In this document: positions 1,014 through 9,380 of the stretch, piece after piece | Position numbering within the stretch: the stretch's first letter is position 1 | Layout of the letters: every line of letters starts with the position of its first letter | NCBI GenBank assembly: GCA_044222065.1 | Contig: JBGAOA010000086.1 | Location: 1 to 14,196, forward strand | DNA: 14,196 nucleotides | Origin: Candidatus Eiseniibacteriota bacterium | GTDB lineage: Bacteria > Eisenbacteria > RBG-16-71-46 | Direction of reading: 5' to 3' | The notes under the pieces: model-generated | What the model was told of the DNA's origin: nothing | Databases searched by the model: none | Seen by the model: the letters and a program-made list of their open reading frames with translations, nothing else | Program-made: the position numbers and the translations under genes

Positions 1014-1251
1014 CGTCGCGCGCGCCCGATCGGATGAGCCCCGGCGCGCGCGAACGCGTCGCTCATCCGCTCGCCCGCGACCTCCGTAGAGCGCGTGGTA
1101 CGGCAGCTCGAGACCGGGCGGATTCGACCGCCGCTCGATGGCAGCGACTCGTCGTGCCGGCGGCGGAGACACCGTCGCCTCGCGGCGGGGAGCGGCGCCG
1201 AACGGCGCACTCGTCCCCGCGGAACCGTTGCGTGAGAAAGGACCACACCCC

Positions 1252-3057
1252 ATGTACCGCCCACTCCAGAGAGCCGTGCTCGCCGCAGCGCTGTTCGCCG
1301 CGCTCGGCGGCGCGAGCGCGCACGCCTCGAGCCACAGCGAGGCGCCGGGAACCTCGAAGGACCGCCTCGCCGACGACACCGACCTGTACGCGTGGGTCGC
1401 GCCCGATGCGCCGGACGCCGTGACGTTCGTCGGCAACTGGGCGCCGCTGCTCGAGCCCAACGGCGGGCCGAACTTCTACGGCTTCGACGACGACGCGCGC
1501 TACTACATCAACGTGGACAACGTCGGCGACGCCCGGGATCACATCCGCTACGAGTTCGCGTTCCGCACCGTGCGCACGAACGGCGGCACGTTCCTCTACA
1601 ACACCGGACCGGTGACCTCGCTCGACGACCCCGACCTGAACGTGCGGCAGTTCTGCACGATCACGCGCTGGGACAACGGCGCGCCGACGGTGCTCGCGAC
1701 CGACGTCGCGGTCGCGCCGAACAACGTCGGCCCGGTGTCCATGCCGGACTACGGTTCGCTCGCTGCCGCCGCGGTCCGCAACCTGCCCGACGGTTCGCGA
1801 GTCTTCATCGGACCGCGTGACGATCCGTTCTTCGTGGACCTGGCGGCGATCTTCGACCTGCTGACGATCCGGAAGGTCCCGGGCAACCGCGGCCGCGGCG
1901 TGGACGGCCTCGGCGGCTTCAACGTGCTGAGCGTCGTGCTGCAGGTGCCGAAGACGCGCCTCACCTCCGACGGCCTCGCCCCGAACGCGAACAACGGCGT
2001 GATCGGCATCTACGACTCGGTCGAGCGCTTCGCGACGCGCACGATCAACGGCGACGGCACGACGAGCGCGAGCGGCCCGGAGGTGCAGGTGTCGCGGCTC
2101 GGCATGCCGCTCGTCAACGAAGTCGTGATCGCGCTCGGCGACAAGGACCGCTTCAACGCCACGAAGCCCACGGGCGACGGCGCGTTCCTGCCGTACGTCA
2201 CCGACCCCGAGCTCGCTCGCCTGTTCACGGCGATCTACGGCATCGCGACGCCGCCCGCGCCGCGCAACGATCTCGTCACCGTGTTCCTGACCGGCATCCC
2301 CGGGCTCAACAAGCCCGCGAATCCGGCGCAGGTGCCGTGCGAGATGCTGCGCCTCAACATGACGATCCCGCCGGCCGCGAAGCCGAGCCGCTTCGGCATC
2401 CTCGCGGGCGACGTCGCGGGCTTCCCGAACGGCCGGCGCCTGTTCGACGACGTCGTGGACATCGCCGAGCGCGTGGTCGCGGGCGCGACGCCGTTCACGC
2501 CGGCGTTCAACGTGCCGCTCAACAGCCAGCTCGGTGACGGCGTGGACTTCAACGACCGTCCCTTCCTGTCGCGCTTCCCGTACGTGGCGCCGCCGCACGG
2601 CCCGTTCCGCCACGAGCACCACCCCGAGCAGCGCGGTCACCGTCGCCCGTGGGAGTCGCAGGCCGGGGCGCCGGGATACGACGATCCCTCGAACGACGAC
2701 TCGGCGCAGAAGCTCGGCGTGTCGCTCGACGACGAATCCGAGTCGCTCGAGGCGACCGGCGGAGACGCGACGACGACGGCGCCGCTCACCGGCGGGCTGC
2801 GCTTCGCGGGCGCGAACCCGGCGTCGGCGAGCCGGCTCGAGTTCACCGTGCCGCGGGCCGGGCGCGCGAAGCTGGTCGTGATGGACGTGCAAGGCCGCGT
2901 CGTGCGGAACCTGTTCGATCAGGACGCCGCCGTCGGGACCTTCAGCGCGCGCTGGGACGGGCTCACGGACGAGGGCGTCCGCGCCAACCGCGGGATCTAC
3001 TTCGCGCAGCTCTCGACCAGCGGCCAGACGTTCCAGAAGAAGATCGTGCTGGAATAG
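1252..3057 (+). CDS. DUF4331 family secreted protein with His-rich/acidic linker and C-terminal FlgD/T9SS-like Ig domain, 601 aa
   Basis: Start moved from 1138 to ATG 1252 (GAAAGGA upstream, signal peptide ending AHA). Mature N-terminus SSHSEAP and motifs 'DDTDLYAW', 'GGPNFY', 'GPRDDPFFVDL', 'QVSRLGMPLVNEV', 'GFPNGRRLFDDVVDI', 'FPYVAPP' match DUF4331. Tail 'NP...F.VP..G..KLVVMDVQGRVVR.L...WDG...GIYF..L...KKIVLE' is FlgD_ig-like. Confidence 0.92.
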   Translation: MYRPLQRAVLAAALFAALGGASAHASSHSEAPGTSKDRLADDTDLYAWVAPDAPDAVTFVGNWAPLLEPNGGPNFYGFDDDARYYINVDNVGDARDHIRYEFAFRTVRTNGGTFLYNTGPVTSLDDPDLNVRQFCTITRWDNGAPTVLATDVAVAPNNVGPVSMPDYGSLAAAAVRNLPDGSRVFIGPRDDPFFVDLAAIFDLLTIRKVPGNRGRGVDGLGGFNVLSVVLQVPKTRLTSDGLAPNANNGVIGIYDSVERFATRTINGDGTTSASGPEVQVSRLGMPLVNEVVIALGDKDRFNATKPTGDGAFLPYVTDPELARLFTAIYGIATPPAPRNDLVTVFLTGIPGLNKPANPAQVPCEMLRLNMTIPPAAKPSRFGILAGDVAGFPNGRRLFDDVVDIAERVVAGATPFTPAFNVPLNSQLGDGVDFNDRPFLSRFPYVAPPHGPFRHEHHPEQRGHRRPWESQAGAPGYDDPSNDDSAQKLGVSLDDESESLEATGGDATTTAPLTGGLRFAGANPASASRLEFTVPRAGRAKLVVMDVQGRVVRNLFDQDAAVGTFSARWDGLTDEGVRANRGIYFAQLSTSGQTFQKKIVLE

Positions 3058-3217
3058 CGGTCCGAAACCCGACGCCGCTTCGCCCGCGGGGAGCGGACGG
3101 CCGGCGCGAGACGAGCACGCGGCACGGGGTCCGGCGAGCGATCGCCGGGCCCCGTGCGCGCGCGGGCCCCGCGGCGCCACGTCCCCGCCCCGCTCGTCCG
3201 CTTCCGACACGGAACGC

Positions 3218-3247
3218 CGAAGCCCCGGCTTTCCGACCGGGGCTTCG
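3218..3247. terminator. Hairpin between convergent genes, likely intrinsic terminator
   Basis: Perfect 11-bp stem CGAAGCCCCGG (3218-3228) / CCGGGGCTTCG (3237-3247) with 8-nt loop, 17 nt past the stop at 3265. No long U tract. Confidence 0.7.
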
Positions 3248-3264
3248 CCAGGCGTCCGAGCACT

Positions 3265-3552
3265 TCAGTCGCGGTAGAGCGCCTTGATCGCGCCCCACGT
3301 GCTCGGCTTCGCCGGCAGCACGAAGTCCACGAGGAACTCGAGCGAGTAGGACTGCGTGATCGCGCTCGTCTGCTGGATCACGAAGCAGTACGTGCCGGGC
3401 GTGAGGAACGGAATCGCGAGGTGGTTCGTCGTGACCGAGTTGCTCACGAACGCGGGCATGAGGTTCGCGCCGACGTCGCCCGCGTCCGCGTGAATGCCCG
3501 CGAGGAAGCTCGCGGCCGTCGCGCCGCTCGGCACGAAGCTCGTCGCGCCCGA
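3265..3552 (-). pseudogene. 3' fragment (about 95 aa) of a probable secreted beta-rich protein ending PAKPSTWGAIKALYRD; 5' part missing
   Basis: From SGATSFVPSG onward the codons are GC3-rich and the sequence is protein-like, and it ends in the same tail as the neighbouring gene. Upstream of 3552 the frame is Arg/Pro-rich, with no signal peptide or good RBS in the frames I read. Could be a real deletion or an assembly error. Confidence 0.6.
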
Positions 3553-3788
3553 TAGGAGGCGCGGCGCTGCTCGGGGCGGGACGCGCGAGCGGTCCGTTCC
3601 TCGTCGCGGCGGCCGCGCTCGCACTGCTCGTCGTCGGCATCCACAACTCGTGGGACACCGTTACGCACCTCGTCACGACATCGCGGTCGTCCGATCGCGC
3701 GACCGAACGCAGCGATCCGCCGACGACGGCGCGTGCCCCCGAAGCGCCGGGCACGTCGCCCGCGACCTGACGTCGCCGCGCGGGACCG

Positions 3789-4508
3789 TCAGCGGTAGAG
3801 CGCCTTCACGCGGCCCCACGTGCTCGGGGTGACCGCGGTCGCGACGTCCTGGATGAATCGGAACGAACGAATGTCGCCGCGCGCGTTCGCCCCGCCCGTG
3901 CCGTCGCCGAACAGCACGCGGTTCGCCGCGACCGCGCCACCGCCGCTGCCGGTGCCGATCAGCACGCCGTCGCGGTACATCTGCCACGAACCGCCCGGCG
4001 CCCAGTCGAACAGGTAGTCGTGGAAGGTCGTGTTGTCGAACAGCGCCGGGAGCATGGACCAGCCGCCGGCCTGCAGGAGGCCGACCTTGCCCGCCGTGAG
4101 CGTGAATCCGTACTGCACGCTGCCGGTCGTGAACACGAAGCACAGCCCGCCTTCGCCGAACGGAAAGGACGCCGTGCCCGCCGTCTGCAGGCAGCGCGCA
4201 TTCACGCGGATCTGCTTCGCCTCGGTCGTCGTGATGCCGGTCAGCCGCTGGTAGTAGATGCCGGCGCCGGTGGTGCCGAGGTACTGGCCGATCGTGTTCT
4301 GGGCGAGCATTCCGCTCCCGACCGTGAACACGGACGACTCCAGCACGCCGGCGTGCGCACCGGTCGCGACGTAGGTGAAACCCTGCGACGAGGGCAGCGA
4401 AGCGAAGTTCAGGGTGAGGTCGAGCGGGGCGGCGAGCGCGGCCGCGGTGGCGAGCAGGGATGCGAAGCTGGTTGCGACGAACGCGATCGTCGGGATGCGA
4501 CGGAACAT
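3789..4508 (-). CDS. Secreted beta-sandwich (concanavalin A/lectin-like) protein with C-terminal TWGRVKALYR motif, 239 aa
   Basis: ATG 4508 with GGAGG upstream. Signal peptide MFRRIPTIAFVATSFASLLATAAALA. Beta-strand-rich body with 'TTFHDY...WQMYRDG.LIG...N.V.FGDGT', resembling ConA/LamG-like folds (fold call is inference). Ends DVATAVTPSTWGRVKALYR. Confidence 0.8.
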   Translation of the reverse strand: MFRRIPTIAFVATSFASLLATAAALAAPLDLTLNFASLPSSQGFTYVATGAHAGVLESSVFTVGSGMLAQNTIGQYLGTTGAGIYYQRLTGITTTEAKQIRVNARCLQTAGTASFPFGEGGLCFVFTTGSVQYGFTLTAGKVGLLQAGGWSMLPALFDNTTFHDYLFDWAPGGSWQMYRDGVLIGTGSGGGAVAANRVLFGDGTGGANARGDIRSFRFIQDVATAVTPSTWGRVKALYR

Positions 4509-6281: not shown

Positions 6282-7257
6282 CTAGGGCTGCGGCGATTGC
6301 GCCCGCAGCTCGAAGCGGTAACGCGAGGCGCGCGTGAAGCGCTCGCCGTGCTTCTCGACCTCGCTCGCGAGCACGACCGCGTACTGGCCGGGCGTGAGCG
6401 GCTCGTTCTCGCGGTCGATGACGATCATGCGGCGCGGCTCGAACTCCCACTGCCGGTACTGCACGGCGAACAGCTGGCGTCCCGCCGCATCGAGCAGCGA
6501 CACGGTGACGAGCGACGTGTCCGGCACGTTGAGCGGTTTGATGCCGAGCGCGAGGCTCGTGAGCGCGCCCGCGACCGGAATCACGTTGAGCTTGCCTTCG
6601 CCCGGGCTCGCGTCTTTCACGGGGCCCGAGAGCGAGCGCGGCTTCGGCGCGATGCGCAGCGTGAGTCCCGTCAACGGTTCGCTCGCGATCGTGCTCGCCG
6701 TGGGCCGGATGCCCGCGGGCGCCGAGAGCGGACGGCTGTCGAACTGGCGCGCGCGCAGGTCGAACACGAACACGAGCACGGCCGCGGCGGTCGCGAGCGT
6801 GCCCCACGCGAACAGCACGCGTTCGCGCCGCGTCCGCAGCGCGGGATCGAAGCGAACGATGCGCACGTTCGGCGCGGCGGGCGCCTGCGGTGAGGCTGCC
6901 GCCTCGTCGAGTTCGCGGCCGGTCTCGAGTTCGGCGCGGAACTCGAGCGCGGGCGAATGCCCGAGGGCCTCGAGGTCCTGCCGGCACTCGGCGCAGCGCT
7001 CGAGGTGCCGGCGCACGAGCGCACGCTCGAGCCCGCGCAGCGTCCGCGCGCGCGCGGCCAGCTCGCAAGCACCGCGGGCGGGACGTGCCGTCCGCCCGGC
7101 GTGTCGCTCGCGTCCGCGAACGCGTCCGCGTGCGCGCGCACGCCGCGCAGCCGGCGACGTGCGACTCGAGACGCGACGTCTCGTCGTCCGTCAGCAGTCC
7201 CGTCCGCCACGCGCCGAGGCGCGTTCTCACCCAGTCGTGCGTCACCCGGTCTTCCAT
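6282..7257 (-). CDS. Transmembrane anti-sigma factor with two zf-HC2 (ZAS) motifs; two apparent 1-nt deletions (about 325 aa when restored)
   Basis: ATG 7257 with GAGGAG, 9 nt after the sigma stop. First frame MEDR...HVAGCAAC; shift near 7135 to HADAFADASDTPGGRHVPPAVLASWPRAR; shift near 7045 to TLRGLERALVRRHLERCAEC, then TM helix VLFAWGTLATAAAVLVFVF and a beta-rich C-terminal domain. Span 976 nt + 2 = 326 codons. Confidence 0.8.
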
Positions 7258-7266
7258 CGGTGCTCC

Positions 7267-7851
7267 TCACTCCTCCCCGAGGCCCGCGAGCAGCGGATCG
7301 CCGCCCGCGCCCGCCGCCGCGCGCAGCAGTTCCACGCAGCGCGACCATTGCTTGCGAATTCCGTCGTGGCTGCGGCCCGTCGCCGCCGCCACGCGCTTCC
7401 AGTCCCAGCCGTCGAAATACGCGACCGCGAGGTCGCGGCAGCGCGCATCTCGCGCCGTGAAGTACTCCAGCACCACGAACTCGATGCGCTCGAGCGGATC
7501 GCCGAGCGACTCCGCGCGCGCGCGCGGGTCGGCCGCGGTCTCGATCGCGGTCTCGTCCTCGCGCACGAGCGCCGTCCAGCGCGTGCGCCGTCGCAGCGCG
7601 TCGATCGCCGTCCGGCGAGCGACCTCGGTGAGCAGCGCCTCGAGGTTCTGGACCCGTTCGCGGCGCAGGTAGCGCAGCAGGCGCACGAGGCACTCCTGAG
7701 CGAGGTCGTCGATGAGCCCGTGACTCGCGGGCGGCAGCTCGACCGCGAGCCTGCGGCGCACGAAGTCCGAGGCCTGGTCCCAGCGGACCTCGGCCTCGTT
7801 CGCCGCGCCCGCAGGGCCGGCGTCCGGGTTTCCGCGCTCGAGGGATGTCAT
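7267..7851 (-). CDS. ECF-type sigma-70 family RNA polymerase sigma factor, about 194 aa
   Basis: Region 2 'DDLAQECLVRL...L.ALLTEVARRTAIDALRRR' and region 4 HTH 'YFDGWDWKRVAAATGRSHDGIRKQWSRCVELLR'. Lies directly upstream of a ZAS anti-sigma. Start uncertain (ATG 7851 lacks a clear SD; GTG 7866 is an alternative). Confidence 0.88.
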   Translation of the reverse strand: MTSLERGNPDAGPAGAANEAEVRWDQASDFVRRRLAVELPPASHGLIDDLAQECLVRLLRYLRRERVQNLEALLTEVARRTAIDALRRRTRWTALVREDETAIETAADPRARAESLGDPLERIEFVVLEYFTARDARCRDLAVAYFDGWDWKRVAAATGRSHDGIRKQWSRCVELLRAAAGAGGDPLLAGLGEE

Positions 7852-8038
7852 ACCTGACGCACGCAATCAGAGTCGGCGGCAACGCGCAACCGCGTCCGGG
7901 GCTTCCGGCGCCCGGGTGCCGCGCGGGCCGCCGGCCCTGAGTGTGCTCGTCCCCCGGTTCGTCGCGCGAACGACCGCCGTGTGACGCGGCGATCGCGGCC
8001 GGAATCCGCGGCTTTCGAACCGCCCCGCCGCGGTGCGG

Positions 8039-9280
8039 TCAGCGCACGAACAGCAGGCGGCGGACGAACGCCCGCTCGTCCGCCACGAGCCGGCACAGGT
8101 AGACGCCCGGGGCGAGCGCCGAGCCGTCGACCTCGACGACGTACTCGCGCGCCTCGTGCCGGCCGCGCGCGAGCGTCGCGACGCGGCGGCCGGCGGTGTC
8201 GAACAGCGCGAGATCCGCCTCGCCCGCGCGGGCGAGCGTGAAGCGCACGCGCGCGCGGCCGGCGACCGGGTTCGGCTCGATCGGCGCGAGCGCGAGCCCG
8301 GCGGGGCGCGCGTCCGAAGCGACGCCCGTGACGAACGACGTGCTGCGCCACACGCGGCGTCCGCCGGCGAGCAGCCGCCCGCTGGCCGTGAGCACGAGCG
8401 AGGCGAGCGCTTCGTTCGCCGGAATGCCCGCGCCCGTGTTCGTCCAGGTCGCGCCTTCGTTCACCGACTGCCACACGTGCGTGTCCTCGGCGCCGTAGAG
8501 CGTGCCGTCCGGCCCCGCGACGAGCGCGCTCACGTACGGGGCGCTGCCGCTCAGCCGCACCCAGCTGTCGCCGCGATCCACGGAGCGGTAGAGACCGTCG
8601 AACGACGCCGGGAACAGCGTCTCGATCACGACGTGGTCGTTCGGCAGCACCGCGAGCGAGCGCACGTTGAGGCCCGAGAGCCCCGAGACGAGCCGCGTCC
8701 ACGTGAGGCCCTGGTCGAGGCTGCGGTAGAAGCCGTCGATCGAACCCGCGTAGGACTCGCCCTGCGAGCCGAAGCCGAACTGCGACGTCGCGCTGCCGCC
8801 GCTCGCGCCGGGAAGCGCGATGGACTGCCACGCGTCGCCCGCGTTCGTCGAGCGGTGCACCTTGCCGTTCCCGGTGTACGTGAGGCCCGCGAGCACGACG
8901 CCGCCGGGATGCACGGCGATGCCGTCGCAGCCTTCGGTGACGAGATCGCCGCTCCACGTGAGGCCGCCGTTCGTCGAACGGTAGAGCCCGAGTGCGAAGT
9001 CGCTCGCGAACAGCGCGCCGTCGGGCGCGATCGCGAAGCGGCCGACGTAGCGGCCCGGAACGAACGGCGCGACCGGCGACCACGATTCGCCGTCGTCGTT
9101 CGACACGTACACGGAGCCGCCGCCGAACGCGTACGTGGGCCCGGCGGGCGAGGCGGCGAGACGATAGACGTAGCCGGACGGCAGGCTCGTCGGCTCCCAG
9201 TCGAGCGCGAGCGCCGGAGCGGCGAGCGCGGCGGGCAGCGCGAGGACGAGCGCGAACGCGAACGGAACGCGAGGGATCAC
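8039..9280 (-). CDS. Secreted Asp-box (BNR/Ycf48-like) beta-propeller with C-terminal T9SS/FlgD-like sorting domain, 413 aa
   Basis: GTG 9280 with GGAGG. Signal peptide ending ALA. Six Asp-box-type repeats (SNDDGESW, STNGGLTW, STNAGDAW, SLDQGLTW, SVDRGDSW, SVNEGATW). Tail 'VTGV...PNP...F.L...L.LFDTAGRRVATL...LAPGVYLCRL...RRLLFVR'. Confidence 0.88.
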   Translation of the reverse strand: MIPRVPFAFALVLALPAALAAPALALDWEPTSLPSGYVYRLAASPAGPTYAFGGGSVYVSNDDGESWSPVAPFVPGRYVGRFAIAPDGALFASDFALGLYRSTNGGLTWSGDLVTEGCDGIAVHPGGVVLAGLTYTGNGKVHRSTNAGDAWQSIALPGASGGSATSQFGFGSQGESYAGSIDGFYRSLDQGLTWTRLVSGLSGLNVRSLAVLPNDHVVIETLFPASFDGLYRSVDRGDSWVRLSGSAPYVSALVAGPDGTLYGAEDTHVWQSVNEGATWTNTGAGIPANEALASLVLTASGRLLAGGRRVWRSTSFVTGVASDARPAGLALAPIEPNPVAGRARVRFTLARAGEADLALFDTAGRRVATLARGRHEAREYVVEVDGSALAPGVYLCRLVADERAFVRRLLFVR

Positions 9281-9380
9281 GGGGACCTCCGTGGAGGGAG
9301 CGAGCACGCACGGTTCGAGGTCGGATCGCGCGGGAGTGTCCGCGAGCGACGGCCCCGCGTCCAGAGGGAAGGTGCCCGGC

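Follow-up and report, generated by a model that had tools for sequence, protein, structure and literature searches.

A C-terminal peptide of 17 residues, here called the TWG tail, is a real feature of the genome of a Candidatus Eiseniibacteriota bacterium and not a product of chance. As judged from sequence, it appears to be a portable tag on small Sec-exported proteins, and we give about an even chance to the reading that it is a miniature signal for a T9SS without motor. The tail was noticed in a stretch of 14,196 nucleotides (hereafter the window), in which two neighboring genes end in it. We describe its distribution in the source genome and beyond, the anchors with which it is exchanged, the secretion genes that could read it, and the explanations that compete with the one we prefer.

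The source genome (4.2 Mb, 72% GC, 94% complete) was scanned over all of its 50,555 stop-to-stop frames with the pattern [ST]WG.[IVLM]K, which recovered 45 C-terminal and 0 internal matches. Five residue shuffles returned 1 to 4 matches anywhere and 0 or 1 terminal match per run, a comparison that excludes chance. An HMM of the tail added one SFG variant and one degenerate copy, and its scores left a gap between 25 and 17.5 bits; the conservation of the tail is consequently not merely imposed by the regular expression. The 45 matches and the variant make a total of 46 tail-bearing proteins, mostly small and exported, with the consensus [TV]-[PA]-[ATS]-x-x-x-[TS]-W-G-x-[VIL]-K-x-L-Y-R, the R being the last residue in 44 of them. 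They sort into 32 BLAST groups (sizes 11, 3, 2 and 2, plus 28 singletons). A crude hydrophobicity heuristic detected a candidate signal peptide in 40 of the 46, and a stricter rule accepted 39, compared with 400 of the 1041 frames that served as controls (Fisher p 3e-10). Of the six proteins left without one, four are fragments at contig ends, one is a piece from a frameshift, and one is a remnant in the window that is described below. Complete tail proteins are short (190-339 aa, median 252, n=40) and the CTD proteins of this genome are longer (median 670 aa for the 175 with a predicted start). The last 16 residues carry a net charge of +2 to +5, and the tail contains no hydrophobic or transmembrane segment.

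These counts support in part the sequence-only reading of the window, which had proposed to scan the proteome for the motif and to count the matches with signal peptides. The motif is confined neither to two genes nor to one family, it is never internal in this genome, and it is absent from Pfam and NCBIfam, no family of which covers the tail in the 40 tail proteins scanned. A strictly terminal position holds in this genome but not everywhere, since other lineages fuse the motif ahead of a T9SS domain. No description of the tail was found in the literature searched, with few queries on the tail itself and most subscription papers outside the coverage. Tail genes are scattered over the genome and do not cluster with T9SS genes. 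Their proximity to CTD genes is a weak signal, with 22 of 46 lying within 3 kb of one against a random mean of 14 and a maximum of 23 in 500 draws.

In the window, both tails lie on the minus strand where they had been placed at the outset. The complete gene (3789..4508) encodes a protein of 239 aa that starts with the Sec-type signal peptide claimed for it (4431..4508; about 26 aa with an A-x-A site at its end, predicted by eye and with the crude hydrophobicity rule). A concanavalin/LamG-like passenger follows, with a weak match to PF13385 (LamG-like) that falls below the cut-off (E 4e-4). The protein ends in the first tail copy, ATAVTPSTWGRVKALYR and a stop (3789..3842), in which a small-residue linker precedes [ST]-W-G-x-[IVL]-K-x-x-[YFW]-R. 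The second copy, VLPAKPSTWGAIKALYRD and a stop (3265..3321), was recognized by sequence, regular expression and HMM. As had been proposed, the two passengers are dissimilar, and they fall in separate groups in an all-against-all BLAST comparison (E 1e-4). The picture of two adjacent tail proteins must however be amended, because both tails are present but the downstream one closes a 5'-truncated remnant (3265..3555, minus strand) rather than a whole gene. The remnant is without a signal peptide and approximately the first 100 of 192 codons are missing; according to the codon-position GC profile the frame is coding-like only from about 3555 to 3265. This stretch matches the last 90 or so residues of a 192-aa signal-peptide-plus-tail protein in a relative (G014; 75 residues aligned at 65% identity). 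The break is spanned by contigs from three public DNA runs, each of a different study (X1 at 3102-3755, X3 and X6 at 3473-3584), so that the truncation is genomic and not an assembly error, unless all of them stem from the source sample. One RNA run (X15) covers the window in scattered pieces only.

Other features of the window deserve mention. A perfect 10-bp hairpin, found by eye at 3219-3246 between the tail genes and a convergent DUF4331 gene, looks like a shared terminator. The DUF4331 protein (1138-3057, plus strand) and a BNR-repeat protein (8039-9331, minus strand) each have a terminal T9SS type A CTD above the TIGR04183 cut-off. At 6282-7866 on the minus strand, an ECF sigma factor precedes a probable anti-sigma factor that starts like a zinc finger and includes a membrane segment, and downstream of the pair are small beta-barrel-like exported genes without family matches.

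The tail extends well beyond the source genome. Its DNA pattern was found in 116 of 121 genomes of this phylum, in up to 60 copies, when a reversed-pattern control gave 0 or 1. SprA is encoded in 117 of the same 121 genomes and is thus so nearly universal that co-occurrence of the two within the phylum has no statistical power. A scan of a genome collection yielded at least 123 tail loci, and the titles of the 80 listed include Eisenbacteria, Krumholzibacteriota, Latescibacterota, Zixibacteria, Ignavibacteria, Kapabacteria, Calditrichaceae and KSB1. In a viral scan, six loci were recovered, with two terminal tails and one internal in-frame match.

A single family of about 135 aa, composed of a signal peptide, an FN3-like sandwich and the tail, accounts for 52 tail proteins among the matches listed. 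Its tail, which reads S-[GS]-V-K-R-T-W-G-S-I-K-A-M-F-R with S-G-V or T-A-V as linker, is the best-conserved part of the family, and large proteins of these genomes contain a domain homologous to the FN3 domain of the small protein. The protein matches no Pfam, NCBIfam or named Atlas family, the Atlas matches being unnamed clusters at 0.97-0.98. In one genome (G240) it carries the only terminal tail in 2.0 of 2.19 Mb. Its gene lies among housekeeping genes (SpoIID-like, Maf, MatE and others) in the 31 loci examined, and no machinery gene adjoins it in these 31 neighborhoods. A second small family of about 136-140 aa, with signal peptide and tail and no Pfam match, adjoins a SpoIIE-type phosphatase gene (L065:3614-4030, L074:4004-4447, and L164); one of the records is labelled Zixibacteria.

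The phylogenetic profile of the FN3-tail protein was drawn from 151 genomes of the phylum of G121, with SprA in 120 and GldM above cut-off in 37. The full-length protein was present in 56 of 83 genomes that have SprA and lack GldM (56 among the matches listed), in 0 of 37 with GldM, and in 0 of 31 without SprA. A second profile gave, among the matches listed, no tail-covering match in the 27 remaining SprA-positive, GldM-negative genomes, 14 SprA-negative genomes and 12 GldM-positive genomes. A motor-less T9SS therefore does not need the FN3-tail protein, given the 27 such genomes that are without it. Since the GldM-positive group would correspond to Bacteroidia and the small SprA-negative group to green sulfur bacteria, the profile reflects few independent events, perhaps four clades.

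Passengers of the tail overlap with those of known anchors. Among 40 tail proteins scanned, NHL propellers, cupredoxin, PPC and DUF642 exceeded Pfam cut-offs and choice-of-anchor V and X exceeded NCBIfam cut-offs, with weaker matches to GEVED, DUF4114, LamG, lamin-tail and choice-of-anchor C. For 8 of the 46 tail proteins, in 5 families, the same genome encodes CTD-bearing homologues, and in the alignments printed the start of the tail coincides with the start of linker plus CTD. A paralogue of the window gene (C87:11672-13228, 45% identity) has a T9SS-type CTD in place of the tail. A database search limited to lengths of 107-343 aa returned 79 homologues of the window passenger, of which 67 fit the tail regular expression and 10 end in recognizable variants of it (G being replaced by A or S in some); the other two are a short fragment and a protein (P0078) that ends in PEP-CTERM (TIGR02595, 31 bits against a cut-off of 16); no CTD form occurs among these length-limited homologues. 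By homology, then, one passenger type is assigned to three different anchors: TWG tail, T9SS CTD and PEP-CTERM. The search for homologous passengers with T9SS or PEP-CTERM tails, which had been suggested as a check, thus turned up both. The original interpretation of the tail as a sorting or anchoring tag gains support from these swaps. Homologues of another tail protein (C25:5351) in the source genome (C122:4470-6207 and C23:9779-10693) have a twice-repeated dockerin-like D-x-D-G ending, possibly a fourth alternative anchor. In family f7, where the tail is low in copy number, it is retained on a lamin-tail-like protein encoded next to an ABC permease-like gene (L048, L052, L056), and a similar protein of the source genome (C52:1-891) has a degenerate tail, with N for K, and reads on past it. 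No machinery was detected near the retained tail gene of several f7 genomes.

A fused form in which the motif precedes a CTD was sought in metagenomes, and 123 loci were found, 111 of them in frame, representing 98 distinct proteins; because the search pattern demanded this arrangement, the count establishes existence and not frequency. The spacer between the K of the motif and the first conserved stretch of the CTD, L-x-x-N-Y-P-N-P, is 3 residues in 85 proteins and 2 in 13, and [AS]-V-E-P precedes the fused motif. Two fusions tested against TIGR04183 scored 41.6 and 36.1 bits, above the cut-off of 23. AlphaFold models give the fused TWG segment a pLDDT of about 50, with no confident packing on the CTD. 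A comparable linker motif, [TVL][GDAS]V[EDGP], lies ahead of 52 of 149 CTDs, where shuffles averaged 12; in the tail linker, proline mostly takes the place of the G, A or D of the CTD linker.

The source genome encodes SprA (530 bits, cut-off 200) and a porU-porV pair (PorU at 469 bits, cut-off 420), two further C25 peptidases, at least three PorV-family barrels above cut-off and two more by similarity, and 208 terminal CTD-like matches to a purpose-built HMM. GldM, GldL, GldN and PorP were not found in this 94% complete genome, and G163 was positive for GldM, GldL and GldN. Several candidate readers of the tail were considered. A predicted complex of PorV with the FN3-tail protein (both from G240) scored 0.01, in a run in which controls were not folded, and speaks neither for nor against binding. 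An outer-membrane protein of about 1180 aa (C77:27271-31617, L043; also L192, L193 and L194), with a short SprA-like stretch and without a family of its own, is encoded in the porU-porV operon beside an Omp85-family gene. This second barrel was rejected as a tail-specific reader: it occurs in 103 of 151 genomes, many of them GldM-positive and without the tail protein, and was not found in some tail-positive genomes, G240, G216, G201, G169, G122 and G260 among them. It follows SprA, present in all 103 carriers, rather than the tail.

Exosortase was rejected as a reader as well, for its occurrence goes with PEP-CTERM rather than with the tail. Genomes of family f2 have 35-60 tails each, and exosortase and PEP-CTERM were each present in 0 of 5 of them; G001, 100% complete, has 44 tails and no exosortase; and G240, G220 and G127 have the FN3-tail protein and no exosortase. 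The source genome has one PEP-CTERM match and an exosortase locus (C95:5496-13474, L481) with a sugar transferase, a TPR protein, a kinase and a regulator. In the phylum sample, tails are few and PEP-CTERM proteins more numerous in families f3 and f7, the opposite holds for f1 and f2, and both tags abound in f10 and f13; the trade-off between the two is partial. A recurrent operon, mostly in motor-less genomes, combines a barrel resembling TonB-dependent receptors, a large protein whose CTD is unusual, and a PorV-family barrel (C55:30792-39086, C84:2500-9556 and C38:25273-34814 in the source genome, and L288); the C55 and L288 copies include a GWxTD protein. This operon stays a weak candidate for the reader. 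When G240 (2.0 of 2.19 Mb) was compared with the source genome, 525 signal-peptide-like frames were shared, 116 were left after filters, and 79 were Pfam-scanned; none could be singled out as tail-specific.

Taken together, the anchor swaps, the fused form and the genome profile are most simply explained if the peptide is part of the T9SS signal. On this account it would represent the stretch between a PorU-type cut site and the CTD fold, standing alone on small passengers where the system has no motor. Proteins would be exported by Sec, and the folded passenger would then offer its short basic stretch, with W, G, K and aromatic-R at the end, for recognition by a component of the T9SS, which might be PorV, another PorV-family barrel, PorU or SprA. 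The passenger would be moved to the surface, where a PorU-type C25 peptidase might cut at the small-residue linker ([TV]-[PA]-[ATS] in this genome, S-G-V or T-A-V in the FN3 family) and so release or anchor it. There are precedents in PMC11969387, where PorU cuts include T/GI and T/SL, CTDs of 40-55 residues are functional in Prevotella intermedia, and 22 residues of Hbp35 suffice for GFP; PorU cutting is described as sequence-independent in PMC4804311. Several observations weigh against the T9SS reading. The characterized CTD signals in these two sources (PMC11969387, PMC4804311) are all beta-strands, whereas the tail is without motifs B, D and E and is predicted to be helical or loose. Furthermore, AlphaFold shows no confident packing of the motif on the CTD, there are motor-less genomes without the tail protein, and Kamke et al. 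(PMC3909097) report no Por structural genes in CTD-carrying Poribacteria single-cell genomes. Note also that exchange with PEP-CTERM fits any envelope anchor.

What competes most seriously with the T9SS reading, with a probability well short of even, is an uncleaved docking peptide that would tether small exported proteins to a conserved partner in the envelope but not in the T9SS core, be it a protein of the periplasm or outer membrane, a surface layer, or a carrier with a CTD; co-occurrence with T9SS would then be a matter of shared ancestry. The retention of W, G, K and terminal aromatic-R across 32 unrelated groups would suit a protein-binding site, and the tag swaps with two mechanistically different anchors. 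The TonB-barrel, large CTD-like protein, PorV-family barrel and GWxTD operon is common to the source genome and G240, and a search with one query placed its large protein in 32 of 151 genomes, 28 of which have the FN3-tail protein. That single query, however, missed half of the tail-bearing genomes, and the PorV barrel of the operon is more simply the shuttle of the neighboring CTD protein, as for type B CTDs (PMC12618676). No dedicated gene adjoins the tail genes in the neighborhoods examined. The fused form is also awkward for a docking peptide, as it puts the motif downstream of the presumed cut site, from where it would be lost together with the CTD.

It is improbable that the tail is a basic amphipathic helix in direct contact with a membrane face or with LPS. 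C-terminal helices of DacA-type carboxypeptidases bind the membrane face in this manner, the charge of the tail and the spacing of W, I/V/L, L and Y roughly on one helix face would agree with it, and no machinery is encoded nearby. The helix itself, part of the sequence-only reading, proved weakly supported: AlphaFold predicts a C-terminal helix with a pLDDT of about 70 in one family (FN3) and about 50 in the fused form, and the hydrophobic moment is no higher for 100 degrees (0.47) than for 170 degrees (0.49). Membrane anchors tend to be longer than ten residues, and it is uncommon for lipid-binding helices to preserve an invariant G, K and terminal position in families that are unrelated, as the tail does; the fixed spacing of 2-3 residues before CTDs would be left unexplained. 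Descent from PEP-CTERM with loss of the transmembrane segment, and processing by the exosortase of the genome, is very unlikely. Tail passengers are indeed similar to the cargo of PEP-CTERM in their size and in their families (choice-of-anchor C, DUF4114, ScyF-like NHL), one homologue of the window gene has PEP-CTERM, and the source genome has an exosortase, but the tail-rich genomes without that enzyme contradict the proposal, as does a tail with no transmembrane segment. Finally, a functionless relic of paralogy or chance is given virtually no credence. It could appeal to the one group that holds 11 of the 46 proteins and to the broken gene that carries the second copy in the window, but it is refuted by the 28 singletons among 32 groups, the lack of internal matches and the shuffle counts, and the tail is what the FN3 family conserves best.

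Returning to the motor-less T9SS signal, a less probable extension of it would make the peptide ancient and CTD-independent. It would have been kept on the FN3 protein in genomes labelled Ignavibacteria, Kapabacteria, Calditrichaceae and KSB1, expanded in Eisenbacteria and relatives onto dozens of small proteins, fused before the CTD elsewhere, and lost from lineages that have the GldLM motor or no longer have SprA. If this were so, 17 residues would suffice as a tag to send a folded protein through SprA, or onto it, with no rotary motor. More generally, the tail would constitute a new class of protein-sorting signal across several mostly uncultured phyla, would supply a family rule covering thousands of proteins that are at present annotated as hypothetical, and would offer a handle on how SprA/PorV/PorU machines without a detectable GldLM motor select and move their cargo. 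Complete genomes of lineages with record titles including Ignavibacterium and Melioribacter encode the FN3-tail protein; these names suggest cultured relatives, which makes the question testable at the bench. A display tag of this length would also be useful for the engineering of surface display.

Comparison with known systems places the tail close to, but apart from, several of them. Like the T9SS type A CTD (TIGR04183/PF18962; FlgD_ig PF13860-like here), which is carried by PorV and cut by PorU, it is C-terminal on Sec-exported proteins with the same passengers and a small-residue linker before both; fused TWG-CTD proteins exist, and the host has SprA, PorV and PorU. Unlike this domain, it spans 17 residues instead of 70-100, is predicted to be a helix or loose instead of a beta-sandwich, and lacks motifs B, D and E; its passengers are small, motor or ring genes were not found, and neither the two tail proteins of the window nor 40 others match TIGR04183 or PF18962. 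In P. intermedia, the short CTDs (40-55 aa, three strands; PMC11969387) are likewise shrunken T9SS signals that are still cleaved and anchored, but they retain the last two strands and motif B, whereas the TWG tail represents the stretch before the CTD and has none of these. With PEP-CTERM/exosortase (PF07589, TIGR02595; PF09721) it shares a short portable format, small surface-type proteins, overlapping passengers and one swap. It differs from that system in having no transmembrane segment or basic cluster after it and in the many tail-rich genomes without exosortase, and none of the 40 tail proteins scanned matches PF07589 or TIGR02595. Type B CTDs with dedicated PorP/SprF shuttles (PMC12618676) show that a second class of signal can have a shuttle barrel of its own. 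The source genome similarly has several PorV-family barrels beyond PorV; type B CTDs are however long, and their genes usually neighbor that of the shuttle, whereas genes with the tail are scattered and PorP/SprF was not found. Although it shows the defining features of neither the type A CTD nor PEP-CTERM, the tail works like a portable C-terminal sorting signal, being present in many copies, terminal, attached to unrelated exported proteins, and exchangeable with other anchors.
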